Shown here one piece after another: positions 2,864 through 56,037 of a DNA stretch of 64,000 nucleotides. The stretch covers positions 2,543-66,542 of the forward strand of contig JAJZFJ010000244.1 of the NCBI GenBank assembly GCA_021805395.1. The letters run 5' to 3'. The notes beneath the pieces were generated by a model that saw only the letters and a program-made list of their open reading frames with translations, was not told where the DNA came from and did no database searches. This stretch comes from a bacterium (GTDB lineage: Bacteria > Armatimonadota > Chthonomonadetes > Chthonomonadales > Chthonomonadaceae). A program made the translations under genes and the position numbers. Every line of letters begins with the position of its first letter. Position 1 is the first letter of the stretch.

Positions 2864-3439
2864 ATGATGCAGACTGATATAAACAATATAACACTCTTAT
2901 TATGGATTGCAGTAATCATTCTCTGGGTAGTTAGATCATTTGGCAACAAGGCTACTCTTAGAAAACTGCCCAAACAGATGAAAATTCAATATGTTGCAAG
3001 TATAGCGGCTGTTGTTATTGTGTACATCGCTGCAGTTCATAATAATATTCTTAATAAGCATTTTCTGCCCCAATCCGTTCCTGTCTCTCTATTTGGCTTT
3101 ATATTAACCGCGCTGGGTTTAGGTTTGGCAGTTTGGGCGAGATTCTTTCTCGGATCTAACTGGAGTGCCAACCCCACTGTGAAGATGGATCACAATTTAA
3201 TTATTGAAGGACCATACAGATTTGTGCGTCATCCAATTTATGCTGGATTTCTTCTTGCGATTCTAGGTACCGCGTTTGAACAAACCCAAACTCGCTCCCT
3301 GCTGCTGTTTATCTTTCTGTTTATAAGCTTCGTAGTAAAAGCACGTATAGAGGAGAAATTAATGATAGAGACATTTGGCAGTCAGTATAAAGAGTATATG
3401 CGTAATGTGAAGGGCATAGTTCCGTATTTGTGGTGGTAA
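2864..3439 (+). CDS. isoprenylcysteine carboxyl methyltransferase (ICMT/PEMT-like) family membrane protein
   Basis: 191 aa, multi-TM, with signature GPYRFVRHPIYAGFLL. SD AAGGAG lies 5 nt upstream of the ATG. Confidence 0.85.
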   Translation: MMQTDINNITLLLWIAVIILWVVRSFGNKATLRKLPKQMKIQYVASIAAVVIVYIAAVHNNILNKHFLPQSVPVSLFGFILTALGLGLAVWARFFLGSNWSANPTVKMDHNLIIEGPYRFVRHPIYAGFLLAILGTAFEQTQTRSLLLFIFLFISFVVKARIEEKLMIETFGSQYKEYMRNVKGIVPYLWW

Positions 3440-3501
3440 GATCAGTCCCTGAATGGGTGTCATCGTACTGAACGCGAAAGATCTGTCTTCGAATTTGGCT
3501 G

Positions 3502-4440
3502 CTACGAGGTTAGAACTCCATGGGGCAGCACTGCATGCACACCACAAAGCTTATTTACCACTTGGGTAATCCGCAGATCTACCACGAGACTCGCGAGCAT
3601 GAGTGCCTCTGTCCTCTTCAGATGATGAAGTTCATCCATGAGCTGTAACATGGAGTCCAGGGCTAAGACTGTTGCTTCGTTCAGATCTTCATGAAAGCCA
3701 AATGTCAGCCAGCCTGATGGAGTGTTTGCACGAGGCAGGCTTAGCTGTTTGTTCTCATGCAGTACAAACTCAAGTTCAACCTGTTCCATAGGGCATTCCA
3801 GTGCTACGCCAGAGACCTCGCCATCTCCCTGAACAGCGTGACCATCGCCCACTGAGAAAAGGCCCCCCGGTACAGCAATTGGCAGGAAAAGGCTGCTGTT
3901 TTCCACTAACTCCTTACAGTCTATATTCCCACCCGTATGGCGAGGAGGTGTCGTCGAAAGGATACCTGGCTCGTCAGCAGGCATTCCCATTAATCCCATA
4001 AATGGCTTCAGCTTTAAAGTATGACCATCAGCCGAGTAGGCAGCATTTTTGACAAGATCAATTTTCCATGCAGTGAACAATCGAGGCATGCCTGATACTT
4101 CCAGGCGGTCATTAACGGGGCTTGGAAAGCCTCCACCAATTGACCAGCCCCAATTAGCAGGTACTACTTTTCTAATTTTTATCTCTAATACCATGCCAGG
4201 CAAAGCACCTCTAATGAATATGGGGCCACACAGTGCGTGCCCAATATCGAAATCTGGATGACGGTCTGGAAATTTATCTTTCGGGTTAAACGGGTCCTCC
4301 TGTTCCATTAACCACCAGCCTGCATCCAGAGTTTTGTAGGTAACAATATCCCCGGAATCGATTGTAAGTACAGGCTTCATCTCACGCGAAAAATGTCCAT
4401 GAAGATTGGTTCTTGTTGGAAGAATATGGTGATGTGTCAT
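3502..4440 (-). CDS. acetamidase/formamidase family protein
   Basis: 312 aa. Motifs CGPIFIRGALPGMVLEIKI and TGGNIDCKEL...LFLPIAVPGGLFSVGDGHAVQGDGEVSG match the FmdA/AmdA family pattern. Confidence 0.85.
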   Translation of the reverse strand: MTHHHILPTRTNLHGHFSREMKPVLTIDSGDIVTYKTLDAGWWLMEQEDPFNPKDKFPDRHPDFDIGHALCGPIFIRGALPGMVLEIKIRKVVPANWGWSIGGGFPSPVNDRLEVSGMPRLFTAWKIDLVKNAAYSADGHTLKLKPFMGLMGMPADEPGILSTTPPRHTGGNIDCKELVENSSLFLPIAVPGGLFSVGDGHAVQGDGEVSGVALECPMEQVELEFVLHENKQLSLPRANTPSGWLTFGFHEDLNEATVLALDSMLQLMDELHHLKRTEALMLASLVVDLRITQVVNKLCGVHAVLPHGVLTS

Positions 4441-5570
4441 TGTGGTGTGGAAGGGTTATTTTCTGCACCGGGTGGAGCTGTGTAGGGAGGGAGCGTGTTA
4501 TCGAGTGCCTCTTTCACGTAGATACCAAAGTATGAAGTAGGCGTATAGTTCCAGTCGTTGATAAGGTCAGGGCTGGCTGATGGATGCATGTCCCATGCAG
4601 TCCAGTTCCAGTGATGCGATTCGAGTGCCTGCAATACTTCACGGATCCATATAAAGTTCGTATTGCTTGGAGGGTTAGGATTTGCTCCAAACTCGCTGAC
4701 GATAACAGGGATTTTCGCCGTGGCTGTCTTCATCTCTTTAAGCCATTGGGCAAAGGTCTCCCCTTTGAAAGGATAGTTATGGTTTGCATATATGACACCG
4801 TTGCCATTGGGGTCTGAAAGCTGATATCCGTTCAAGAATCCAGTCATGTCGTAAGCCCAGTTAATCCCACCTGCAACAACCACATTTTTGGCTCCTGTGC
4901 TCCTAACGGCATTAAGAAGCGTCTGCATACCCACTGCTCTGTAGGTCATGCTTTTACCTGTCTTTCTGTCATTTTCAGTGACAGGGCCGCCATATTTCCA
5001 TACTTGCCAACTGATGTCATGAGGCTCATTATAGAGGTCAAACAGGACTCCAGGATAGTTCCTGTATACCCGGGCGAAACTCTTCCAGAATGCAAGGGTA
5101 TTCTTGTCCGGCATCTTATGCTGACCTATCTGATTACCCCATACACCTTCGTCTGACCAGTGCATGTCCAGGATGATGTAACTTCCAAGAGAGTTACAGG
5201 TATGCACAATCTTCTGGATGAGTGTGCGGTAATGTTTGCCCTTAAACTGCTGGCCACGCGCTTTGCCAAACCATCTGTCCTGAGAAAGAGGTAGACGTAT
5301 GATGTTGGCATGCCAATCCTTAACTGCAACATGAATGGTTGTAAGGATATGCCCCTGCCCATCACTTGTCCATTCCATACTGGCGGCATCTACTCCTCTC
5401 AGCCATACAGGCTGGTTGTTGCTATTCATTACCTGAGTGCCCTGAATATGAAGCGGCAGAGGTAGTGCTGCATTTGCCGGGAGAGGAGAGCTTATTGTGC
5501 TCCCAAGCAGGTATGTACTTGTAACTACTCTTTGCAGGATTGTGAAAGTATGGGAAAACCGTTTAAGCAT
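4437..5570 (-). CDS. secreted glycoside hydrolase family 5 (cellulase family)
   Basis: 377 aa with an N-terminal signal-like segment. Catalytic acid/base context DLYNEPHD and nucleophile context VSEFG, plus HWSDEG. Its stop overlaps the start of the downstream gene (ATGA at 4437-4440). Confidence 0.85.
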   Translation of the reverse strand: MLKRFSHTFTILQRVVTSTYLLGSTISSPLPANAALPLPLHIQGTQVMNSNNQPVWLRGVDAASMEWTSDGQGHILTTIHVAVKDWHANIIRLPLSQDRWFGKARGQQFKGKHYRTLIQKIVHTCNSLGSYIILDMHWSDEGVWGNQIGQHKMPDKNTLAFWKSFARVYRNYPGVLFDLYNEPHDISWQVWKYGGPVTENDRKTGKSMTYRAVGMQTLLNAVRSTGAKNVVVAGGINWAYDMTGFLNGYQLSDPNGNGVIYANHNYPFKGETFAQWLKEMKTATAKIPVIVSEFGANPNPPSNTNFIWIREVLQALESHHWNWTAWDMHPSASPDLINDWNYTPTSYFGIYVKEALDNTLPPYTAPPGAENNPSTPQ

Positions 5571-5931
5571 CTCTTCTCTGCTCCTTCTTCTACAGTGAAA
5601 TGACGAGGAGACCTCGGATACCGTCGCATGGATTATGTAAATTTATTCAGGTAGACAGTGTATGCAAGCCATTCAGCAATTTGTAAAGCGGCTTCCAACT
5701 TTGCTGGGGCAGCACTATGTAACTAGAGTATACATCAGGTTCAATGAGATATGACGGAATTCATCCTCAATTGTGTTACGGTTCACTTTTCGATTGGTTT
5801 GCTAATTCTGAATATCTCATGAAACCTTAATATATCCTTAATTATTTGCACTGCATAATCTATTGGAACTGCCATACTCATTCGACTTTGTATGAGCTGG
5901 CGGATATTCATATGATATCAGGAGGACCTCG

Positions 5932-8655
5932 ATGCGAGGACGCATACTTGCTATTGGAGTGATACTTGGGCTGCTACTTTCCAATCCCGGCATCTGCTCC
6001 CAGCCCGTCTATTTACATGCACCTTCGGTGAACTCTTATGCCGATTTAAACCCTGCTGGCACTACCATTCTGCCTACAGGACGACTGTTGCAGCCAGATG
6101 GACGCTCGATGCCTGTGGCGAAATGGCCACACGGACTTGCAATCAGCCCGGATGGTAAAACTGCCTATGTATCCAGTGGGGTGCCTGGAGAGTTCATCTA
6201 CAACTGGGCTAGTGCAAACCCGATGGTTAAAACAGTTATTCCAACCCATAAGTCGGAGGGTGGATCTGCGGTATTCTCTCCAGACGGCAAATACCTTTAC
6301 AGAGCAGCGGGAGACGATGGCGGGATCTACAAGTTTGATGTGGCTACTGGTGCGGAGACAGCCTTCTATACAATCAATGGCGATGTGAATGGCAGCAGAT
6401 ATTCCAACAGTGTAACCCAGTGCATTCGCTTAAGTGCCGATGGGTCCACCCTCTATTGTGCAGATGTGGCTAACTTCCGCCTGGTAACTCTCAACGCTTA
6501 CACAGGTAAGCTTCTAGGTTCCGTTAAAGTTGGCTACTATCCATATGCCCTCGCTGTTGCTGGAAACAGGGTTTATGTTGCCAATATTGGAATGTTCCGA
6601 TATCATCTCGTACCCAAAGCCCCAGCTGGGTATCCTCAACGCGGCCTTACACACCCTCCTTTTGGAGTACCGTCCAGGCAGGCCAGATCAGGAGTCAATA
6701 TGGAGGGGCGCGATGTTCCCGGGCTAAATGATCCCAATGCGATAGCCACCTACTCAGTTTGGGGCGTGGATGTCTCTAACCCTTCCAGCCTGAAGGTAGT
6801 TGAGCGTGTGAAAACAGGTGTTCCTGTTGGACAGAGTGTTGACGGTAGAAAGGCGATTGGAGGCAGTGCACCGAACTTTCTGCTGGCATACGGTCATACT
6901 ATCTATATCTCGGATAATAATGATGACCTGATAGAGCAGCTAGATACCCGGACAGGTGAAATAGTACATCGCACTCTCATTTCACCCTCACCACTGGTGG
7001 CAAAGCTGCGAGGAGTTGAGCCTGCAGGAATGGCTATCTCACCTGATGGTTCCAGACTATATATTGCTGAGATCGGCATTAATGCCATTGGAGTGATGGA
7101 CACACATACTGGCGAAATAGTTGGTCAGATCCCTACAGCATGGTACCCATACAGAGTTGGAATCTCAAAAGATGGATCCCATCTGTGTGTAATCTGCTTC
7201 AGAGGTTATGGTTATGGGCCGAATGCAGGTCTGGAAAAGCCAAACAGTCCATACCTTGGCATGATGGGTTCGTTTACAAGCCTGCCTACGCCTACTGACT
7301 CTGCTCTGAAAGAGCTTACTCAGAGGGTATTGATATGCAATGGCTTTATAAACAGGATTGCCGATCTCCCCTCAATGGAATCTCCTGTAATCCCCACAAC
7401 CCCAGGTGTGAAGTCACCAGATATCCGCACGGTTGTGTTCATCCTAAAAGAGAATCACACATACGATACAATATTTGATCATATCCCTGGTGCAAGATCG
7501 GATCCCTCTCTACTACGGTGGGGATTACACCAGGACATATCAGCTCCTGGCGAGCCTACTTTACATGATGTGCCGGTAATGGTTAATCATAATGCCCTTG
7601 CAAGAGAGTTTACGGTGAGTGACAACTACTATATGATGCCCGAGATGTCTGGTATGGGGCACAGATGGCTCGTGGATGTTAAGCCCAATAACTGGTGCCA
7701 GATGCTCTATACTCTCGGGTGGAACTGGATGCCAGACAACCGCGCTCCCGGAAGACTGGTGCCATTTGATTCCAATGCAGGTATGGCGCCAGAAGACTAT
7801 CCTGAGGCAGGATCGATGTGGGATCACCTTGCAAATCATGGAATCACGTTCAGGAATTATGGAGAAGGTTTTGAGTTTGCCGGCGTGCTTGAGGATGATA
7901 AGGAAGCACCCACCGGGGCACGCGAGACAGTAAACATACCTATGGAGAAGTGCCTGTTTGACAACACATGCTTCGGGTTTCCACTATTCAACATGAATAT
8001 TCCCGACCAGTACCGAGCACACTGGTTTGAAAAAGATATCACAACAAACTACCTAAACAAAGGCAAACCTATGCCTCAGTTCCTGTGTGTGGATCTATGT
8101 AACGACCATGGCACCGATCCCAATCCCAAACGTGGATATCCTTATGTTGCTTCCTGGATGGCAGATGACGACCTGGCTCTTGGCAGAATCGTTGACTTTC
8201 TTTCGCATACACCAGAGTGGAAACATATGGCGATCTTCGTAACCGAAGACGACTCTGGTGGTGAGCCAGACCATGTGGATAGATGCCGTGGAGTTGAGTT
8301 GATCATTTCGCCCTGGGTGAAGAGACACTATGTGAGCCACAGGCATACTACCATCGTAAGTATGCATCGCACAATGTATGAGATCTTCGGTCTTGGTCCG
8401 TTGAATATCGATGATGCAGTTAGCAACGATTTTTCTGACTGTTTCACAACCCATCCCGATTTCACACCTTATAACGTTCTACCTGTTGATCCTCAAATTT
8501 TCGATCCGGCGAAAGCAGTTATACCAGGCGATCCTGACTATGCAGATGCCAGGCTCATGCCATCAATAACGATGGATAATCCTGTTACCGAAGCTTATGT
8601 AGATAATCATCCTGGCAGCAAACCTGCCAAAAAGATTGAGAAACGAGTGAACTAG
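5932..8655 (+). CDS. secreted bifunctional-type protein: N-terminal YncE/YVTN-like beta-propeller plus C-terminal phosphoesterase (PLC/AcpA family) domain
   Basis: 907 aa with a signal peptide (ILAIGVILGLLLSNPGICS). Repeated SPDG..LY blades (ISPDGKTAYV, FSPDGKYLY, LSADGSTLY, ISPDGSRLYI, ISKDGSHLCV). Phosphoesterase signatures VVFILKENHTYD and FVTEDDSGGEPDHVD. Confidence 0.7.
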   Translation: MRGRILAIGVILGLLLSNPGICSQPVYLHAPSVNSYADLNPAGTTILPTGRLLQPDGRSMPVAKWPHGLAISPDGKTAYVSSGVPGEFIYNWASANPMVKTVIPTHKSEGGSAVFSPDGKYLYRAAGDDGGIYKFDVATGAETAFYTINGDVNGSRYSNSVTQCIRLSADGSTLYCADVANFRLVTLNAYTGKLLGSVKVGYYPYALAVAGNRVYVANIGMFRYHLVPKAPAGYPQRGLTHPPFGVPSRQARSGVNMEGRDVPGLNDPNAIATYSVWGVDVSNPSSLKVVERVKTGVPVGQSVDGRKAIGGSAPNFLLAYGHTIYISDNNDDLIEQLDTRTGEIVHRTLISPSPLVAKLRGVEPAGMAISPDGSRLYIAEIGINAIGVMDTHTGEIVGQIPTAWYPYRVGISKDGSHLCVICFRGYGYGPNAGLEKPNSPYLGMMGSFTSLPTPTDSALKELTQRVLICNGFINRIADLPSMESPVIPTTPGVKSPDIRTVVFILKENHTYDTIFDHIPGARSDPSLLRWGLHQDISAPGEPTLHDVPVMVNHNALAREFTVSDNYYMMPEMSGMGHRWLVDVKPNNWCQMLYTLGWNWMPDNRAPGRLVPFDSNAGMAPEDYPEAGSMWDHLANHGITFRNYGEGFEFAGVLEDDKEAPTGARETVNIPMEKCLFDNTCFGFPLFNMNIPDQYRAHWFEKDITTNYLNKGKPMPQFLCVDLCNDHGTDPNPKRGYPYVASWMADDDLALGRIVDFLSHTPEWKHMAIFVTEDDSGGEPDHVDRCRGVELIISPWVKRHYVSHRHTTIVSMHRTMYEIFGLGPLNIDDAVSNDFSDCFTTHPDFTPYNVLPVDPQIFDPAKAVIPGDPDYADARLMPSITMDNPVTEAYVDNHPGSKPAKKIEKRVN

Positions 8656-8796
8656 TCATCTTAAGGGATGAGATATCCAGTTATGCGAAGGTATTGAAAA
8701 AACAGGCTTATCATACATGGCAGCATGAATGGTAAGCCTGCAGTTTTATGAATATACAAACATAACTCATTGGTTACAGTATGGTAGACTTAAGCT

Positions 8797-8925
8797 ATGA
8801 CATCCCCAGTTAACAGACAGGTGGAACAAGTTAAGAAGCAGCGCATAAATAACCAGCAGACTATAATTGGGCTGGTGGTGGCAGCAGTTGTTGCAGTCGC
8901 AATCACACTCCCTCTTCGCAACTGA
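8797..8925 (+). CDS. possible 42-aa tail-anchored small membrane protein (speculative)
   Basis: My translation: MTSPVNRQVEQVKKQRINNQQTIIGLVVAAVVAVAITLPLRN. A charged N-terminus is followed by one clean TM helix, and it sits directly upstream of the TPR gene. No convincing SD, and it competes with an antisense 65-aa ORF (8790..8987). Confidence 0.25.
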   Translation: MTSPVNRQVEQVKKQRINNQQTIIGLVVAAVVAVAITLPLRN

Positions 8926-8961
8926 CTCCAAACAAATACCAATAAACTGAGAAACTCAAGC

Positions 8962-10005
8962 TTGAAACAGTATGAACTTTTAAGCAAAGAGGAGACACTG
9001 CAGAACAGATTGAAGCGAGCAGCTTTAATGGTGAAATCGACACCTGCTAATGTGGCAGCCAGGGCACAGCTGGCCTATCTGCTCTCACTAAGTGGTGATT
9101 TGCACAACGCTGAAACAGAATGGCAGGCAGCAATTCACCTTCAGCCCCATAACCCAGTGCTCTATGTGGGTATGGGTAATACCTATTCTGGCAGCGGCAG
9201 GCTAGATCTTGCAGTCATTGCCTATCAGCATGCAATCCAGTTAAACCCCGATAACGTGGATGCCCTGGTTAATCTCGACAGTATCTATAACAGGCTGCAA
9301 TGGTGGTATCCCGCTGAGACACTGATGGGCGAGGCAATTCGCAGACATCCGAACTCCATGAGAGAGCAGTTAGGCTATGCATCATCACTCTACCTGTCCG
9401 GCGATTACAGGAGATCTCAGTCTCAGATACTTTCTGCACTGAAGATATGGCCTCACAATGAGCGTCTGCTTCTGCCACTGGCAGAGGTCTATCGCATAGA
9501 GGGCAACACAACAAAAGCACAGAAATGTGTGATTGAAGGCTTGCTGCATGATGAAAATTCCACACCGTTGCTTGTTGAGAAAGCCAGAATTCAGCTGACA
9601 ATGGGACAGCCAGAAGAGGCACTGGGAACACTTTTTGAGGTAATGCGTACTGTGCCCGGATCATTACAGATCTACTATATTGCTGCAAAAGCTTATCTAC
9701 TCATGTCCCGGCCAGCAGATTCACTTAAGTATCTGAAAGAGGTCTCACACATACATCCTGATTACCGTCAAACGGACAAAATGATGGGTTCCCTGCTGAT
9801 AAAAGAGGGAGAGGGACATGCTGGAGAATCACTTCTTGCAAGATACAGAGCCATCAGCACCCAGAAGGCTATGATCGAAAAGTTGATTGGTCGAATTACA
9901 AAGAACTTTTCAGACTGGCACGCTCATCTCGCTTTATCGGCTCAGTATTGCAGGCAGCGCAAATACCCGGAAGCTGTGTGGAGTACAGACAGACACTGCT
10001 GCTGA
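8962..10005 (+). CDS. tetratricopeptide (TPR) repeat protein, apparently frameshifted near 9975-9982 (see findings)
   Basis: 347 aa as called, with a TTG start. Multiple TPR-like units (AQLAYLLSLSGDLHNAETEWQAAIHLQPHNP, VGMGNTYSGSGRLDLAVIAYQHAIQLNPDNV...). TPR-like sequence continues in another frame to a TAA at 10101-10103. Confidence 0.75.
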   Translation: MKQYELLSKEETLQNRLKRAALMVKSTPANVAARAQLAYLLSLSGDLHNAETEWQAAIHLQPHNPVLYVGMGNTYSGSGRLDLAVIAYQHAIQLNPDNVDALVNLDSIYNRLQWWYPAETLMGEAIRRHPNSMREQLGYASSLYLSGDYRRSQSQILSALKIWPHNERLLLPLAEVYRIEGNTTKAQKCVIEGLLHDENSTPLLVEKARIQLTMGQPEEALGTLFEVMRTVPGSLQIYYIAAKAYLLMSRPADSLKYLKEVSHIHPDYRQTDKMMGSLLIKEGEGHAGESLLARYRAISTQKAMIEKLIGRITKNFSDWHAHLALSAQYCRQRKYPEAVWSTDRHCC

Positions 10006-48919: not shown

Positions 48920-50077
48920 ATGCGCAAAATTATGATCATTCTAGTACTTTTTGTAATCGCATTCGCTGCCGGAGCACTTGTTACGTATAGATTAGTTAAG
49001 CAGGATTCTGGCTCGGAGTTAAGCTCTGTTGCTGCATCGAACACTGCATTCACCCCTGCTTCCAACCAGCCATTACAACTTAAGACAAGTGACAGCCCGG
49101 TTGGCAATCCTGGAGCACTTGCAACTGCAGCGGCAGTGATAGAGCCATCGGTAGTCACAATAGACACTGCCTCACAGCAAACTGAATGGAACGACTTTCA
49201 GCAGCCTCTTCAGGTAACTGTTCCTCTGGGGACAGGATCGGGAGTGATCCTTACGTCAAACGGGATTATAGTAACCAATAACCATGTTATAAATGGTGCC
49301 ACCAGAATTATGGTTACATTATATAATGGAAAAAAACTGCCAGGCAAAGTGATTGCTAGCGATCCAGTTAGTGATTTAGCCGTGGTTAAGGTGGACGCTA
49401 CGGGTTTGACGCCAGCCACACTTGGTGACTCTGACAAGCTGGTGGTAGGACAGTGGGTAATCGCCGTAGGTGATCCTCTGCGTGTGGGGACAACTGTGAC
49501 GTCAGGAATTGTGAGTGCACTTCATAACTCTGGCCTGCCACCGGGAGTGGGAGGTGAGCTGGCGTCGTATATTCAAACGGATGCAGCTATTAATCCTGGC
49601 AATTCTGGTGGTGCTCTAGCAGACAGCGAGGGCAGGTTGATAGGAATTAACACAGCACTGAAATCAGAAAATGGTGGATTTGTTGGGATTGGTTATGCAA
49701 TTCCGATTAACGAAGTGAAGAAGGTAGTCGAAGAGCTAATTAGCACAGGCAAGGTTCAGCATCCCTGGCTTGGAATTGCATTCACCTCGCTAAATAGTCA
49801 GATTCGACAGGAGTATAACATTCCTTCCTCGGTTGACGGGGTAATTGTGGGTGGTGTTGATCCTGGTGGACCAGCTCAGATGGCAGGGGTTCAGCCTGGA
49901 GATATTATCACTAGCGTGAACAATCAGGCAATAACCAGCAGTAAGGTGCTTGAACTCGCAATTGTAACGGGAAAGGTTAACTCGCAGGTAAATCTGTCTA
50001 TTTGGAGAGGGGGAAACAACGTTTCTGTGACTGTAACATTGGCACAGGAGCCAGCAATGCAGCAGATGCAGGGCTAG
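48920..50077 (+). CDS. HtrA/DegP-family serine protease (S1C) with one PDZ domain
   Basis: 385 aa with an N-terminal TM/signal. Catalytic His context (VTNNHVI), Asp (SDLAVVKV) and Ser (GNSGGAL). PDZ segment GVIVGGVDPGGPAQMAGVQPGDIITSVN. Confidence 0.92.
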   Translation: MRKIMIILVLFVIAFAAGALVTYRLVKQDSGSELSSVAASNTAFTPASNQPLQLKTSDSPVGNPGALATAAAVIEPSVVTIDTASQQTEWNDFQQPLQVTVPLGTGSGVILTSNGIIVTNNHVINGATRIMVTLYNGKKLPGKVIASDPVSDLAVVKVDATGLTPATLGDSDKLVVGQWVIAVGDPLRVGTTVTSGIVSALHNSGLPPGVGGELASYIQTDAAINPGNSGGALADSEGRLIGINTALKSENGGFVGIGYAIPINEVKKVVEELISTGKVQHPWLGIAFTSLNSQIRQEYNIPSSVDGVIVGGVDPGGPAQMAGVQPGDIITSVNNQAITSSKVLELAIVTGKVNSQVNLSIWRGGNNVSVTVTLAQEPAMQQMQG

Positions 50078-51306
50078 CTTCCATTTTCAGTATCCTTCTT
50101 GTCTGCACGTAATGCGCCTGCAGCACCCGTTCTTAGTGCTTGCAGGTGCATAGGTACTAGTGTGGTGCCGACTTCCTGAACAACTGCTGCGTACTCTGTG
50201 ACCAGATCAGTGATGAGCGTTATTGTCATGCCGATAGCTCCTCCAAGTATGCACGCAGCCGCAACTCTTCCTGCCTCATATGTGCCCGATCCTGGCGGAT
50301 TTAGATAGATTACCGCACCAATAAAGCCTCCTATGAATCCAGCAAGCACCCCATACACCCTCGGTATTTTGGGAACTGAGTATGATAGTGAGATACCAGT
50401 AACCAGCCCCAATGTTACAAAGCCTGCAATATGTTCAATCAAAGAGAACGGTATATAGTCAAGTACAGTTCCCGTCATCCAGTTACGCATAAAATTGAAC
50501 AGAAATATAACTGCGCTGAATGATATCTGCCCAACACCTCCCGCAATAAATCCGAAAAACGTGGATAGTATAAGCAGTAACAAAAGTCTTTTCCAGGAGA
50601 GAAGAACTGCACGGTCTATGAGCTTGAACACTATCTGCAGGCCAACCAGCAGCGAAGCAGCAAGAAAGAATACAACACAGGAAGTCCAGATGGCCACAGC
50701 CAAAACAGCAGTCAGCATCCCTTTCAACCATGCAAGAGTTAATCCAGGGTGATTAGATACCTGAAGAGTGTCGATTTTAATTCTTTCTCCAGGTGATGTC
50801 ATTACACCATTGAAGGAGGATACTTTGCCGTGATCGATTACCTGAACTGTATAGGGAGTATCTTTAACTGTATCGTGTTGTGCAAAATAAGTTACATATA
50901 TTCGGTAGGGTCCAACTGGTGCTCTGCCGTACGGCCAAACTATATGTTCAACAGGGGTTGTAATTAGAGCGTATACATTTGAATTCGCATCGATATCTAA
51001 CGTTCCACCTGAGGGGGAGGGTGTTGTTTTATCTGCATACCAGATTCGGTAACCATCGGGTTCAACGCATGAGAGATCAAGATCGTTTTTGTTATTCCAG
51101 AGGAGCGCAATTTCCACAGAACCTGAATGACCCCCCGCAGCAGCAACGCGTTGTGAAAGGCTGTTGCGATTTATTAGCACTCGGGTCTGTACCTTTTGCA
51201 AAGCATGATACAAAGGTGGAATCTGTAATAATTTACCAGCTATAACTGCTCCAACAATGCACGAAACAGCACCTAAAACTGCGAACACAACACGAAACTG
51301 CTTCAC
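50074..51306 (-). CDS. membrane protein: N-terminal TM, DUF2135 (YfaP)-like beta-sandwich, then a C-terminal glycine-rich polytopic domain (about 6 TM)
   Basis: 410 aa with a GTG start and SD AGGAG 9 nt upstream, 2 nt after the upstream stop. SVEIALLWNNKNDLDLSCVEPDGYRIWYADK...GGTLDIDANS...PVEHIVWPYGRAPVGPYRIYVTYF resembles the DUF2135 pattern (L.W....DLDLhv..P.G..i.y......GG.LD.D......PE.i.....G.Y.v.V.yy). Confidence 0.6.
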   Translation of the reverse strand: MKQFRVVFAVLGAVSCIVGAVIAGKLLQIPPLYHALQKVQTRVLINRNSLSQRVAAAGGHSGSVEIALLWNNKNDLDLSCVEPDGYRIWYADKTTPSPSGGTLDIDANSNVYALITTPVEHIVWPYGRAPVGPYRIYVTYFAQHDTVKDTPYTVQVIDHGKVSSFNGVMTSPGERIKIDTLQVSNHPGLTLAWLKGMLTAVLAVAIWTSCVVFFLAASLLVGLQIVFKLIDRAVLLSWKRLLLLLILSTFFGFIAGGVGQISFSAVIFLFNFMRNWMTGTVLDYIPFSLIEHIAGFVTLGLVTGISLSYSVPKIPRVYGVLAGFIGGFIGAVIYLNPPGSGTYEAGRVAAACILGGAIGMTITLITDLVTEYAAVVQEVGTTLVPMHLQALRTGAAGALRADKKDTENGS

Positions 51307-51308
51307 TA

Positions 51309-52886
51309 TCAGTCTCTCCTGAGAATGCTTCTAGTGAAAGACTGAGGAGGAACTGGACTCGCAGCCGCGGATTTCTGTCTGGATGGCTCGTTCTCCTGAA
51401 CAATATCTTCCAGTTGCTGCTGGATACGCGATGTCTCACCGACAACTGCAGCGCGTGATGCCTGTCTTCTGGCATGAAGTTCGTCAGTTAGTTTGACATT
51501 TGCAGCATCTGCTCTCTCTAATTGAGCCTGTGCTATCTGCTCCTGTATCTCACGAATGCTGTCCTGCAGGTATTTCACACGATGTGCCAGATGGATAGCT
51601 CGCTGAACTTCAGGGTCTCTTCTGCGTGTGTCCGCCCACAAGGTTTGGCGATGAAGCAGCCAGGATTCCGATAGGGTAGTCTGTCCATCTCTCCATGCCC
51701 GCACAGCCTTGTAAAGGAGGTATGGGCAGCTGATAAGTGTACCGATTAACAGATAGACGAAAAGTGGTGCCTGAGTGGGAGGGACAGCACCAGGAGCACT
51801 GAATCTCAGTGATCTCATGAGTTGCTGCTGGTGAAGCATGTGCAGCCCAAGTCCTTCTGCTGTGATTTCGGCTATAGCGAGTACAAAGAGTACTGCGGCA
51901 AATCCAATTGCTACTGTCTGCTCCCCCTGGATGGAAGGTGGAGGTGGTTGTGAATCATTGGAACTGGCATCGGGTCGTGTTCCACTATGGGAAAAGAGAG
52001 CAACAGTGTAGTGGACAACCTCTCCCATAAGGTAGACGATCACAAATCCCAGAGCAGCACTTACGGCAATTCTTGCTAGACCATCTGCCCTTAGAATGGT
52101 ATCAATGTTCATAAGACCAATTAAGGTGCCCAAGCAGAGTGCAAGCACAGAGCCTGAAACGAATGGAGCCACAAACTGCATAACGAAGGATATCAGCATG
52201 CTCATGAAGTCACCCTGTCGAGGAGGTTGAACCCCATGCTGTCCAGCAAGTTCATGAAGTTCGGGTACTTCCGCGTCAAGTGCTTCGTCCACTAATTGGG
52301 CGGTGATCTCGGGAGATGAAGCAGTTGAAGTTGTGGAATTCGGGTTTGTGGAGGGAGTGTATGAGAGATCTAATGAGATACCGGCTTTTGCAGCGGATTC
52401 TGCCAGTTCCTGTCTGGTATCGCTTATATTAGCTTGCTGGTCTTTAAGTCTGCTTCTCAGGGATTGAATGTGTAAATCCAGCCTTGCAGTCTCCTGCTCA
52501 GAGATTTGCTGTGATCTGGCAAGGTGTCTTTTAGTTTCGTTCTCTACATCCAAGTGCTCATTTGCAGCAGCAGCTGCTCGAGTGAGATACTGCCACTTAA
52601 GCAGCCATGCTCTCTGAGGCTGGTCAGGGATGAGCTTGAGAAAGTTATCCAGCATCATCTCATTCCGCTTGGGATCTTCTTCTGGCCTGTCTACAGAGGG
52701 AACCGGTGGGATGTGCCATATCACCTCATTCTCTGGTTTTCCATTCCAGAATAATGAGGTCCTCACTGGAGCATCCACGGTTTGCTGTTTCTCTCTTACT
52801 GGAGGTGATACTCCATTTACCACCGCGTGGTCTGTTGTAATTTCTGTATCTTGTTCCACGTTAGTTTCCCTGCGTTGAATTCGCAA
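51309..52886 (-). CDS. hypothetical polytopic membrane protein flanked by two long coiled-coil segments
   Basis: 525 aa as called (TTG 52886, overlapping the upstream gene by 26 nt). Alternative starts are GTG 52859 and ATG 52658. Heptad-like, Q/E/R-rich helices lie before and after a block of about 4-5 TM helices. No family recognised. Confidence 0.6.
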   Translation of the reverse strand: MRIQRRETNVEQDTEITTDHAVVNGVSPPVREKQQTVDAPVRTSLFWNGKPENEVIWHIPPVPSVDRPEEDPKRNEMMLDNFLKLIPDQPQRAWLLKWQYLTRAAAAANEHLDVENETKRHLARSQQISEQETARLDLHIQSLRSRLKDQQANISDTRQELAESAAKAGISLDLSYTPSTNPNSTTSTASSPEITAQLVDEALDAEVPELHELAGQHGVQPPRQGDFMSMLISFVMQFVAPFVSGSVLALCLGTLIGLMNIDTILRADGLARIAVSAALGFVIVYLMGEVVHYTVALFSHSGTRPDASSNDSQPPPPSIQGEQTVAIGFAAVLFVLAIAEITAEGLGLHMLHQQQLMRSLRFSAPGAVPPTQAPLFVYLLIGTLISCPYLLYKAVRAWRDGQTTLSESWLLHRQTLWADTRRRDPEVQRAIHLAHRVKYLQDSIREIQEQIAQAQLERADAANVKLTDELHARRQASRAAVVGETSRIQQQLEDIVQENEPSRQKSAAASPVPPQSFTRSILRRD

Positions 52887-53574
52887 TGAGCATTCTAAAC
52901 TTATTTAACCCTGTCTCTGCATCATCTGGTCCTGTTACAATTAATCGATTTCCCAAAATAGGTGCCCATCTTCGTTCAAGCATCGATCTGAAGCCGTTCT
53001 GTGACGTTGCTCCACAAAACCAAACCGCTTTCACATCAGGGTCAGCACTGATGGATTTAAGTGCGGTAACTGTCTCTTTAGGATCCTGATCCTCTCCATC
53101 CGTTAACAGCATAATTGCAACTGGCCGGTTAAGCGTTGTGTTTGTTTGGATTGTGGCTAGCATATCTTTCAGTACAATTCCAGGATGGGTGCCATAGGTT
53201 GTTGGATGCTGTTTCATGATGAGATCTTCCGTTGGCCATAAATCTTCCGCATGATTTGGTACAATATCACTGTACTGATGAGAATTAACATCGTATGACC
53301 AGAAGATGACATGTGAGCCGTGAGGAAGAGCTTCAGCTACGGTTTGATCCAGGATTCCGAATACCTGCTGCCTTAACTGTGTATGGACACTCCCTGTATC
53401 ATCCGCACCCACTAATAAAACAATTGGTTTAATGTTTGAGCCTGAGTGAAGTATAAAATAGCCAGAGATAGCCAGTAAGGCAATTACTACAATTGCGGAC
53501 GTGCCCGCTATCAGTTCCTGACTGCGGCTGGTACCACCGCTCCCACTCTTTGCCCGGGTGCCTTGTCTACGCAT
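52861..53574 (-). CDS. TM-anchored von Willebrand factor A (vWA)-like protein with a variant MIDAS
   Basis: 237 aa with SD GGAGGAG. An N-terminal basic tail plus TM (AIVVIALLAISGYFIL), then PIVLLVGADDTGSV (D-x-T-x-S in place of D-x-S-x-S), ...TYGTHPG..., ...VAIMLLTDGEDQD. Confidence 0.6.
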   Translation of the reverse strand: MRRQGTRAKSGSGGTSRSQELIAGTSAIVVIALLAISGYFILHSGSNIKPIVLLVGADDTGSVHTQLRQQVFGILDQTVAEALPHGSHVIFWSYDVNSHQYSDIVPNHAEDLWPTEDLIMKQHPTTYGTHPGIVLKDMLATIQTNTTLNRPVAIMLLTDGEDQDPKETVTALKSISADPDVKAVWFCGATSQNGFRSMLERRWAPILGNRLIVTGPDDAETGLNKFRMLIANSTQGN

Positions 53575-53670
53575 TACTCCTCCAATATAAACGCCTGTCA
53601 GGTGTTCAGTACCACTCGGTTAAAATAGTTCTATCCGAGAGAGTGTGAACAGGATAACCACAGTTTTAAT

Positions 53671-54552
53671 TTAATTCAGCAAGCCAGAAGCGGATGCACC
53701 TGTAGATATGGTGAAATCTTTTGTGATGTTATACTTTGTGCAAACAGCTGCTAGTTGAGCATCGGCTGCACTGGCTGATGAGTCGGCAGACATGGATGCT
53801 GCTCCCAGCATGCCAGATAGTGTTTTTATTGCTCCGCTGGGATCTGTGCTAGCCTGAGCAATGGAATCATGAACTTTCTGGAACATACCCTGACAATCTG
53901 CAAGGTGCTGATAATAAGCTGAATAGAGAGCATCACAGGCAGTGGGAGGTGTTCTCTGCTGAAACTCATTTGTGAGCTGCTGCCACTGCTGGGTTATTTG
54001 CCCGCTATCCTGGTTCACTTTTGGCAGGAACGTTTTTGCTTTGGCCGTGCTGCTGGCAGCATTTATCTCATTGGCATCCATATTTCCATATGAACTTAGT
54101 GCAGCTCCCATTTCTTCTCCTATAAGCTGCTGTTTTGTCAGCTCAATCTGTTTCAGAAAAGCAAGATAGTCTGATATGGCGGAGTTATCGGGCGGAGCTA
54201 CCTGTGCAGCTGGCTGTTGAATCTGAGGTGTTGCCTGTGCAACGGCAGGCGCCTGAACCAGTGTACTTGATGAACTTGCAGCCGGTGCCTGAACCATTGT
54301 GGTGTTGGCACTTTGAACAGGCTTCTGAAGCATGTGGGAAGCTGCATATCCACCAAAACCTATGAGTAATAGAACGATTACTGTTGCTGCGAATACCTTA
54401 CCATATGAGGATCTTTTGACAGGAGCTGGACTGACACTGTTTTGGAATACCCTGGTTGGATTGGATGCCGGACTTACTCCAATTGGGTTGCCACACCGCA
54501 GACAGAAACGGGATTGAGCCGGAACTTCGGCGCTGCATCTGGAACATTTCAT
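53671..54552 (-). CDS. zinc-ribbon / single-TM protein with a Q/A/P-rich linker and a Cys-containing helical ectodomain
   Basis: 293 aa with SD AGGAG. MKCSRCSAEVPAQSRFCLRCGNPI (CxxC...CxxC zinc ribbon), TM VFAATVIVLLLIGFGGYAA, repeated LVQAPA linker, and a helical C-terminal domain with 3 Cys. Confidence 0.65.
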   Translation of the reverse strand: MKCSRCSAEVPAQSRFCLRCGNPIGVSPASNPTRVFQNSVSPAPVKRSSYGKVFAATVIVLLLIGFGGYAASHMLQKPVQSANTTMVQAPAASSSSTLVQAPAVAQATPQIQQPAAQVAPPDNSAISDYLAFLKQIELTKQQLIGEEMGAALSSYGNMDANEINAASSTAKAKTFLPKVNQDSGQITQQWQQLTNEFQQRTPPTACDALYSAYYQHLADCQGMFQKVHDSIAQASTDPSGAIKTLSGMLGAASMSADSSASAADAQLAAVCTKYNITKDFTISTGASASGLLN

Positions 54553-54868: not shown

Positions 54869-55567
54869 TTATGAGGGATTGGGGATGTGCGATAGCAGTG
54901 ATCGCAGTGAGAAATCTTTTAGCGATTCGACAACAACATCTGCTGCTTTGATGTTGCCGTGAATGGTCAGACGGTTTGGAACCGCGACACAGAGTATGCC
55001 TGCTGCAACAGCAGCTGCAATTCCATTTGGTGAATCTTCAAATGCCACTGCTTCATGACAAGCTATTGCCAAAGCATCCAACACTGAAAGATAGAGTTCA
55101 GGATTGGGTTTTCTATGTAATACTTCATTCCCGCAGCGGATTACGTCGAAATATTGGATAAGATTGAGACTGGACAGATGAGATTTTACCCAGCTTTGAT
55201 CTGAACTGGATGCCACAGCGAGTTTCATATTCAGCTCCCTGGCGGTTTTGATCAGGTCTATAACTCCTGGCAGTACTTCTTCGGCACTCATCAACTCGTT
55301 AAAGCGAAACCGTCGTCTGTTTCGTATTGCTGTTCTGTCAATCAACAATCCTGTACGCTCCTCTAACATGTCGTACGGAGTGTAGATTGCTTCTTCTGCA
55401 CCGCGTCCTATATATGCAGCCCATTCCGATGCTGAAAACTCCAGCCCATAATCCTGGAATATTTCATACCATGAGAGATATTCAGGGTATTCGGTGTCTA
55501 AAATTAGACCATCAAAGTCTAATATGAGAGCTTTAATTCTGAATTGTGGCTTCAACTTTGCTATCAA
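54869..55567 (-). CDS. HAD-superfamily hydrolase (beta-phosphoglucomutase-like, subfamily IA)
   Basis: 232 aa. Motif I LILDFDGLILDTE, motif II VASSS, motif III/IV ...KPNPELYL..., AFEDSPNGIAAAVAAG. Confidence 0.88.
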   Translation of the reverse strand: MIAKLKPQFRIKALILDFDGLILDTEYPEYLSWYEIFQDYGLEFSASEWAAYIGRGAEEAIYTPYDMLEERTGLLIDRTAIRNRRRFRFNELMSAEEVLPGVIDLIKTARELNMKLAVASSSDQSWVKSHLSSLNLIQYFDVIRCGNEVLHRKPNPELYLSVLDALAIACHEAVAFEDSPNGIAAAVAAGILCVAVPNRLTIHGNIKAADVVVESLKDFSLRSLLSHIPNPS

Positions 55568-55586
55568 CTATCTTGGACCTTGGCCA

Positions 55587-55880
55587 TCATTTCGATGTGT
55601 ATGCTTTGATCAACTCAGTGACTTCTATTCCGTTTATCTTCATGCCATCGAGATCACAATCGGAAACACTCATGCCAGAAAGTCTACAGTCAGTAATAAT
55701 TACCCCAGACATATTGATATCAGTGAAGGTGGTGTTGAGCATATTTATGTTTGTAAACGTCGATCCACTTAGATTAATATCTTCAAAACTTGCTGTGTTT
55801 AGATCACAGTCCCGAAAAGTCGATCCGGACAGAACTGAACGATCAACATTCAGGATATCGGTCGTATTTTTGATCTCCAT
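55587..55880 (-). CDS. pentapeptide-repeat protein
   Basis: 97 aa from ATG 55880 (SD GGAG 8 nt upstream). Contiguous A(D/N)LxX-type repeats: LSGSTFRDCDLNTASFEDINLSGSTFTNINMLNTTFTDINMSGVIITDCRLSGMSVSDCDLDG. The 143-aa version in the track adds a non-repeat N-terminus. Confidence 0.75.
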   Translation of the reverse strand: MEIKNTTDILNVDRSVLSGSTFRDCDLNTASFEDINLSGSTFTNINMLNTTFTDINMSGVIITDCRLSGMSVSDCDLDGMKINGIEVTELIKAYTSK

Positions 55881-56037
55881 TTTTAACGCTCCATTTCTAG
55901 TACGGCTTGATAAGATTACCTGATACCAGAATAAATCTGATTGGATAAACTGCTTTATATTATTCACGGATGAATCTGTTTCAGATTTCCTGGCTGTCAA
56001 AGTGGCATCAGGAAGCATAATATCCTGACATTAGTGG

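Follow-up and report, generated by a model that had tools for sequence, protein, structure and literature searches.

The locus considered here raises the question whether four adjacent genes for membrane proteins in a bacterium of the phylum Armatimonadota form one envelope system, and what such a system may do. The genes, called A, B, C, and D in order of transcription, lie on the minus strand at positions 50074-54552 of a stretch of 64,000 nucleotides (the window; GenBank assembly GCA_021805395.1, contig JAJZFJ010000244.1, positions 2,543 to 66,542, Chthonomonadaceae). An earlier note, made from the letters of this stretch alone, had proposed that the four genes encode a novel multi-component envelope system. 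One part of that proposal stands, a conserved and undescribed membrane module, and the four-gene composition does not: B, C, and D, without A, most likely constitute a translationally coupled three-gene module encoding one inner-membrane complex.

Conservation of the B-C-D trio and the position of gene A

Few close homologues of D were returned by a word-indexed search, and a genome scan with the D alignment gave 284 relatives, of which 80 were kept. Contigs of the close D homologues carry a trio of proteins of 236-242, 516-518, and 396-403 amino acids (aa) in three unrelated neighbourhoods. Co-occurrence was followed over all loci by tBLASTn and then by searches with hidden Markov model (HMM) profiles of B, C, and D. 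The order B-C-D is present in every Armatimonadota locus with enough upstream DNA, that is, in 36 non-identical loci from Chthonomonadaceae, Chthonomonadales, Fimbriimonadales/Fimbriimonadia, and unclassified Armatimonadota, including complete Fimbriimonadales genomes that carry the whole trio. The three genes usually lie 0-20 nt apart (C-D distance mostly 0-5 nt, B-C distance often 1-15 nt), and the surrounding genes are housekeeping genes that vary with the lineage (nuoA, purH, dnaA, der, ruvB, queF, nadA). An arrangement kept in the same order in 36 loci is far beyond chance. A homologue of C is also present in cultured Chthonomonas calidirosea. In this species, the type species of the lineage, many classical operons are reported to be dispersed (PMC4959169), which makes the retention of the trio notable.

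When pairwise identities over the 36 loci are compared, the matrices for the three proteins are strongly correlated (r = 0.96, 0.93, 0.87; Mantel p = 5e-4), which fits inheritance of the three genes as a unit. The contexts of three distant C homologues (~25-30% identity; loci L097, L099, and L101) were obtained by exact look-up, two metagenome scans having given none. In each of them a B-type vWA gene directly precedes C (HMM E 1e-24 to 1e-28), and D is kept beside the pair in L099 (3e-93). Since B precedes all three distant C homologues, B-C is the invariant core and D its usual third partner. In the L101 locus (3416-9273) the vWA protein is a lipoprotein, and C, of 598 aa, has additional transmembrane (TM) helices at its C-terminus. 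Its B-C pair adjoins genes for a relaxase (Replic_Relax), a type IV coupling protein (T4CP; TrwB_AAD_bind), and a double-zinc-ribbon/TM protein, and possibly lies on a mobile element.

Within the window, all four open reading frames (ORFs) described in the earlier note were found on the minus strand at the coordinates it gave, and its spacings are exact: a 96-nt gap between A and B, a 2-nt gap between C and D, and between B and C either a 26-nt overlap, if C starts at TTG 52886, or a 1-nt gap, if it starts at GTG 52859. The GTG start was adopted because homologues and independent gene calls all use its equivalent. The further claim that each gene has its own Shine-Dalgarno sequence holds for A (AGGAG), B (GGAGGAG), and D (AGGAGAG), and only weakly for C, where AGGGAA precedes GTG 52859. 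No terminator-like site was found in the intergenic gaps of the four genes, the sole minus-strand match falling within C. Weak promoter-like matches occur in the A-B spacer and ahead of A, in numbers not above those in shuffled sequence.

Gene A encodes a protein with a putative zinc ribbon, matched below threshold by Zn_Ribbon_1 (E 1.6e-4, 21.8 bits against a threshold of 25) and DZR (6e-4). The gene precedes B only in the species of the window, as seen in several metagenomes, and in one sister species (L095), in which A is 92%, B 88%, and C 86% identical and the A-B gap is ~97 nt. In all other loci BLAST found no A homologue within 10 kb of the trio, an architecture search for zinc-ribbon plus TM ORFs near the trio returned only the window and one unrelated case, and B is preceded by different genes in different lineages. 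Gene A is thus a lineage-specific neighbour outside the conserved module and may have been acquired separately; of the four-gene unit proposed earlier, B, C, and D remain (36 loci) and A, limited to this and the sister species, drops out. In another locus, protein P0006 (L009 5263-6867, 534 aa) has a zinc ribbon at its N-terminus and contains, besides a Pro-rich linker and one TM helix, both DUF6777 and a D-type sandwich, so that the head of A and the ectodomain of D occur in one chain.

Two alternatives concern the composition of the module. A single operon and system of all four genes, zinc-ribbon protein A included, is very unlikely. It would agree with the shared direction of the genes and the lack of a terminator-like site between A and B, with the retention of A and its spacer in the sister species, with the zinc ribbon-TM-sandwich fusion in P0006, and with a zinc-ribbon/TM gene 2.8 kb from one distant B-C pair, but it is at odds with the lack of A at up to 10 kb from the trio in all other lineages, with the change of B's upstream neighbour from lineage to lineage, and with the spacing, as 96 nt containing a promoter-like site separate A from B and only 1-2 nt separate B, C, and D. 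The opposite alternative, no system at all but chance adjacency or mis-called ORFs, is effectively refuted by order conservation and co-divergence: B, C, and D have homologues with invariant motifs, and their order and spacing are kept in the 36 loci.

The A-B spacer is moderately conserved against the sister species, including a kept TTATCCTGTTCA block, and an Rfam scan of the region, spacer included, gave no match; base composition of the region is unremarkable. Downstream, an HtrA/DegP-type serine protease gene with PDZ (48920-50077, plus strand) converges on D, the two stops abutting without a spacer, and is not kept beside D in other lineages. Upstream of A, at a distance of 316 nt, lie genes for a HAD-family hydrolase and a pentapeptide-repeat protein (54869-56018, minus strand), a pair kept beside A in the same species only.

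Architecture of the three proteins

The domain sketches of the four proteins in the earlier note proved correct apart from small corrections, which concern the TM helices of C and D; the coordinates of all features are collected in the table.

Protein B had been described as a basic tail, one TM helix, and a vWA-like domain with a D-x-T-x-S motif, and this description is borne out. Among 21 B homologues the D58-x-[T/S]-x-S62, G128-T129, and T158-D159-G160-E161 residues of the metal-ion-dependent adhesion site (MIDAS) are invariant, and MIDAS residues are also found in the distant B proteins of L097, L099, and L101. The B profile matches integrin I-domains in the PDB (integrin alpha-1 I domain, E 2e-4), and its best Pfam match, vWA-TerF-like, is sub-threshold (E 7e-4). 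By these sequence criteria B is, at the domain level, a bona fide vWA/MIDAS protein with the MIDAS intact. Its TM segment is unconserved, and one Chthonomonadales clade and two distant lineages carry in its place a lipoprotein signal containing a lipobox Cys; the vWA domain of B is therefore placed in the periplasm.

Protein C is an orphan. When 1.84 billion cluster representatives were searched exhaustively by HMM, a family of only 126 clusters was recovered, of which 70 reach E <= 1e-30, and none of the 126 contains a Pfam or NCBIfam domain. The AlphaFold2 model (44 sequences) has a mean predicted local distance difference test score (pLDDT) of 80.3 and comprises a disordered N-terminus, a helix at residues 61-75, a 79-residue helix, two short helices within 187-208, and TM helices at 218-247, 260-292, 313-353, and 366-~390, the last of which runs on into helices 366-413, 416-453, and 459-490. 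The coiled coils previously described on both sides of a TM block are thus retained in the model, and the 4-5 TM helices become four, not five. Family-wide charge counts give an acidic periplasmic loop 1 and a basic loop 2, and the loop charges place both termini, and with them both coiled-coil halves, in the cytoplasm. Conservation peaks in the TM helices (LALCLGTLxG, LGFVIVYLMGE, AExTAEGxG..LH, IGTLISxPYLxYK). Across the family 81% of members retain E331, 93% retain E/D335, and 90% retain K384, and in close homologues E280, E331, E335, and H343 are invariant. Foldseek of the C model against the PDB returned coiled-coil noise only (best E 0.04, TM-scores <= 0.25), as did a search against BFVD, and the C sequence profile gave no useful PDB match. 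Residues 35-53 hold a conserved cytoplasmic motif, 'LFW..(x)..W..PP.P', which reads 'EDLFWHTPP' in very distant homologues.

Protein D combines a periplasmic beta-sandwich with a glycine-rich TM bundle. DUF2135 (PF09906) matches D of the window at 14.6 bits (E 0.037; gathering threshold 22 bits). In the D family 17 of 36 members match it at E <= 0.01 (best 2.4e-5), over a model that spans only ~35 residues, and judged from these profile matches the sandwich is probably DUF2135-related. Its invariant pattern is W..N.DLDL...P.G...GG.LD.D.N...PVE.I.WP...AP.G.Y.V.V. The D profile shows weak similarity to the Ca2+-binding C-terminal beta-jelly-roll of a subtilisin in the PDB (3afg), which suggests a PPC-like fold for the sandwich, and the sandwich may bind Ca2+. 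Hydropathy, AlphaFold2 helices, and positive-inside counts agree on six TM helices, one before and five after the sandwich, with a cytoplasmic C-terminus. Of the earlier outline of D, TM1 and a sandwich of probable DUF2135 type are retained, and the six-TM C-terminal domain is reduced to five helices. Invariant residues of the bundle are Q260, G304, R347, G355, and G359, and TM4-TM6 are rich in conserved Gly. The C-terminus carries a conserved basic tail, 'P-M-x-L-x-P-x-R...G-x-L-R/K'. An N-terminal lipoprotein signal in D was considered and rejected, the conserved Cys16 being outside a lipobox context and absent in Fimbriimonadales. Foldseek of the low-confidence D model gave nothing meaningful beyond a weak match of the sandwich to fervidolysin.

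Table 1. Positions of genes and features at the locus, in window coordinates.
Feature	Position	Strand	Basis or remark
Gene A	53671-54552	minus	ORF, 293 aa
A, N-terminal zinc ribbon (putative), CxxC..CxxC	54484-54552	minus	C3-x2-C6 ... C17-x2-C20 seen in sequence
A, TM helix (one)	54328-54396	minus	
A, helical ectodomain with 3 Cys, after Q/A/P-rich linker	53674-54192	minus	
A-B intergenic spacer	53575-53670	minus	96 nt
Weak sigma-70-like match in A-B spacer	53649-53622	minus	
Gene B	52861-53574	minus	ORF, 237 aa
B, TM helix, after basic N-terminal tail	about 53449-53514	minus	
B, vWA domain (predicted)	about 52885-53427	minus	
B, D58-x-T60-x-S62 MIDAS motif	53389-53403	minus	
Gene C	51309-52859	minus	516 aa from GTG 52859 (525 aa, 51309-52886, from TTG)
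C, long cytoplasmic helix, residues 81-159	52383-52619	minus	AlphaFold2
C, four TM helices, residues 218-390	51690-52208	minus	AlphaFold2
C, E331-x3-E335 (ExxxE)	51855-51869	minus	family alignment
C, C-terminal cytoplasmic coiled coil	51390-51689	minus	
Gene D	50074-51306	minus	ORF, 410 aa
D, TM1	51226-51291	minus	
D, periplasmic beta-sandwich, DUF2135-type (predicted), residues ~58-185	50752-51135	minus	
D, glycine-rich five-helix TM bundle, residues ~195-372	50191-50724	minus	
D, short basic cytoplasmic tail	50077-50190	minus	

Relatives of D in other phyla and comparison with known systems

Full-length relatives of D without B or C within 10 kb occur in Verrucomicrobiota (Limisphaerales, Pedosphaera, Coraliomargarita), Microcystis, and Gemmata. 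Many D relatives outside Armatimonadota have a cytoplasmic C-terminal extension of ~90 residues to which no family is assigned; an FHA-like identity of this extension in the verrucomicrobial and Microcystis homologues was dropped after a PDB profile search and a Pfam scan gave no similarity to FHA. Several near-identical loci of the verrucomicrobial type (among L019-L056) come from metagenome-assembled genomes titled 'uncultured Klebsiella sp.', 'Akkermansia muciniphila', and 'Proteobacteria bacterium', and these taxonomic titles look unreliable.

Fusions join the D-type bundle to vWA domains. In Limisphaerales (L032, L034), a tandem D paralogue of ~935-953 aa (L032 11407-14265; L034 11410-14268) has its sandwich interrupted by a canonical VWA domain (PF00092, 4e-17) together with a ~270-aa insert. 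Ahead of the bundle, a VWA domain takes the place of the sandwich in Coraliomargarita (L062) and likewise in Gemmata (L073), where it is integrin-beta-like. These fusions are Rosetta-stone evidence that a periplasmic vWA domain and a D-type bundle act together. In both of the latter genera D-type genes are interleaved with extra vWA and PP2C genes (Gemmata L073 5596-19925; Coraliomargarita L062 6832-17160). The Gemmata region also contains GAP1 (GTPase-associated protein 1), and the Coraliomargarita region GYF_2-domain proteins. On the chromosome of Microcystis sp. BLCC-F210 (L046 5191-14847) a 565-aa D-like protein is encoded with PP2C, a DUF1036 protein, and an FHA-PrsW intramembrane protease; this cluster further holds a sandwich-less paralogue of the D bundle and three proteins sharing an unassigned N-terminal 'MNDLPRQKL..CEGLL.DLCG' domain.

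The sandwich alone has a different distribution. It gave tBLASTn matches in 328 phage records, from Ackermannviridae of Klebsiella, Salmonella, and Serratia and from phages of Bacillus, Caulobacter, and Microcystis. For example, in Serratia phage Kevin it lies within a 669-aa hypothetical protein without a Pfam domain (L096 1789-3798). Against PHROGs, D matches phrog_1735 (function unknown; 4e-19). On plasmids D was matched through the sandwich only (15 records, no full-length copy), and C had no plasmid match. The sandwich alone is thus a mobile module.

Searches with Pfam, NCBIfam, and PADLOC gave only sub-threshold or coiled-coil matches for A-D; in PADLOC-DB v2, A, B, and D had no match and C had two weak coiled-coil matches ('Effector' and LmuB, E 0.003-0.006). 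Profile and fold searches yielded no characterised assignment, in line with the earlier statement that no described system is known to have this exact architecture. The analogies drawn at the same time, to yfaP/alpha-2-macroglobulin neighbourhoods and to ternary vWA systems, were not sustained, the neighbours of the trio being lineage-variable housekeeping genes, and neither was the suggestion of a conflict system for the Armatimonadota trio; D relatives of other phyla do have vWA/PP2C neighbourhoods. In the case of yfaP, D has a sandwich that is probably related to DUF2135 but carries an additional five-helix membrane bundle, and no alpha-2-macroglobulin or yfa-type gene, as in E. coli yfaP/yfaS, is found among the trio's neighbours. 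A literature search found no paper on DUF2135.

The TerY-P triad combines a TerY-type vWA protein, PP2C, and a Ser/Thr kinase in a predicted metal-sensing phosphorylation switch (Anantharaman et al. 2012, as given in PMC10542128), and TerY-P-like modules are reported as defence systems (PMC10542128). Like the triad, the trio is a multi-gene module centred on vWA/MIDAS, the best, sub-threshold Pfam match of B is of the TerF type, and D relatives adjoin vWA and PP2C genes in Coraliomargarita and Gemmata and PP2C in Microcystis. The differences are that no PP2C or kinase family is present among the called neighbours of the trio (L001-L007, L090-L093), that the vWA domain of B is periplasmic and membrane- or lipid-anchored instead of cytoplasmic as in TerY, and that C and D have no TerY-P counterpart. 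A scan of the 64-kb window for a Hanks-kinase motif was also negative.

Bat operons encode a MoxR AAA+ protein, a DUF58 protein, the TM-vWA proteins BatA and BatB, and BatC/BatD. They resemble the trio in assembling several membrane proteins, including an anchored vWA and a beta-sandwich/TM protein, in one operon. Unlike them, the trio has no MoxR or DUF58 among the Pfam matches of its neighbours in any context, A-D have no BatA or BatD Pfam match, and C has no equivalent.

Likeness to the 5:2 motors (MotAB, ExbBD, TolQR, GldLM, ZorAB) is superficial. C is polytopic with an intramembrane acidic residue and long cytoplasmic helices (compare ZorA and GldL), and B and D could be seen as partners of the single-TM type with periplasmic domains. 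The only member of that family among the fold matches listed is, however, ExbBD (7ajq), with TM-scores of 0.11 and 0.20 and E about 1, and C has no ZorA/ZorB match in PADLOC and no Pfam family at threshold. Since the TM helix of B is unconserved and several clades have a lipid anchor instead, it cannot be a MotB-like plug or proton-carrier helix. The stator-motor reading was rejected, given the lack of a fold or sequence match and the dispensable TM helix of B.

Sensing, tethering, and competing readings of the trio

The trio may be a metal- or ligand-dependent periplasmic sensing or tethering complex coupled to the cytoplasm through the coiled coil of C, a reading that we hold tentatively and as somewhat short of probable. 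In such a complex, a divalent cation bound at the MIDAS of B would clamp an acidic residue of C (in the acidic periplasmic TM1-TM2 loop or the ExxxE motif), of the Asp-rich D sandwich, or of an envelope ligand. Binding and release would be passed through the TM bundles of C and D to the cytoplasmic coiled coil of C, which would serve as output or scaffold. In other phyla, equivalent D-type modules might be wired to vWA/PP2C phospho-signalling neighbours instead.

Several points weigh against this reading and against a complex of all three proteins. Correlated divergence of B, C, and D is also predicted by shared species phylogeny alone. D is absent next to B-C in two distant lineages, and its relatives in other phyla occur without B or C; therefore a three-way complex is not obligatory. 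The AlphaFold2 model of D, built from 5 sequences, is unusable (pLDDT 49.6). No kinase, phosphatase, cyclase, or NTPase is recognisable in or beside the trio, all mechanistic steps set out above are ones that we infer, and a channel or transporter would agree just as well with the strong conservation in the TM helices of C and with the glycine-zipper helices of D.

That alternative, in which C and/or D would form an oligomeric cation-conducting pore that makes use of the intramembrane Glu residues of C and the glycine-zipper helices of D, with B as an extracytoplasmic, lipid- or TM-anchored auxiliary vWA subunit that regulates the pore and docks through its MIDAS, is considered unlikely. A parallel is offered by alpha2-delta, the auxiliary subunit of voltage-gated Ca2+ channels: there, too, a tethered extracytoplasmic vWA domain with a full MIDAS may be compared with B, and a polytopic partner with conserved acidic residues at the outer face with C, but C and D have no homology to channel alpha subunits. 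The concentration of C conservation in the TM helices, with four invariant residues in close homologues and E331/E335 retained family-wide, the conserved Gly of TM4-TM6 and invariant Q260 and R347 in D, the intact MIDAS on a variable membrane anchor in B, and the potential divalent-cation sites on all three proteins would suit a pore. Yet no channel or transporter similarity was found in sequence or fold (Pfam, NCBIfam, PDB), and a simple pore leaves the long cytoplasmic coiled coils unexplained. Those helices, of 79 and about 120 residues, would be accounted for by a structural scaffold of the envelope or cell cycle, with C as a membrane-attached cytoskeletal element that B and D link to the periplasm or cell wall, for instance in envelope integrity or division. 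Vertical inheritance among core genes, with one copy in the 64-kb window, and the role of vWA domains as classic adhesion and tethering modules point the same way; this reading is nonetheless rather unlikely, as none of the neighbourhoods examined contains division or cell-wall genes and the intramembrane acidic motif is hard to square with a pure scaffold.

A conflict or anti-phage system, with the vWA domain and the sandwich as sensors of an invader or of damage to the envelope and C and/or D as effectors that disrupt the membrane, appears quite improbable. The sandwich homologues in phages, including phrog_1735, the proximity of D relatives to PP2C in Microcystis and to TerY-P-like vWA-PP2C pairs in Gemmata and Coraliomargarita, the conflict-system protein GAP1 near the Gemmata genes, and the relaxase and T4CP genes beside one distant B-C pair are consistent with it. 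Defence islands are typically patchy and mobile; the trio, in contrast, stands among varying housekeeping genes, and its members diverge together through two orders. No component has a meaningful PADLOC match, the plasmid matches are absent for C and limited to the sandwich for D, and no nuclease, NTPase, or other typical effector is present.

The trio is thus a vWA/MIDAS-centred membrane module with two components lacking characterised relatives, and it could be categorically new. Uncharacterised conserved operons are common in poorly studied phyla, and this is one such operon in Armatimonadota. On a broader view, to which we give little weight, a D-type glycine-rich module with a periplasmic vWA/MIDAS head would represent an unrecognised, widespread class of envelope signalling or ion-conducting machines, to which Armatimonadota recruited C and of which the phage sandwiches would be mimics or modulators. 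Head and module would then, on the same slender expectation, be paired through gene fusion in Verrucomicrobiota and Planctomycetota and through a shared operon in Armatimonadota, and C, with its ExxxE motif, would be an ion-coupled transducer of a new kind. The vWA-D fusions tie the trio to larger, unstudied vWA/PP2C-associated modules of Verrucomicrobiota, Planctomycetota, and Cyanobacteria, with the sandwich occurring also in phages. If B, C, and D do act together, they would form a phylum-conserved envelope complex in which C and the membrane bundle of D are without a characterised relative, and the trio offers a small, concrete three-gene system for asking what bacterial periplasmic MIDAS domains sense.

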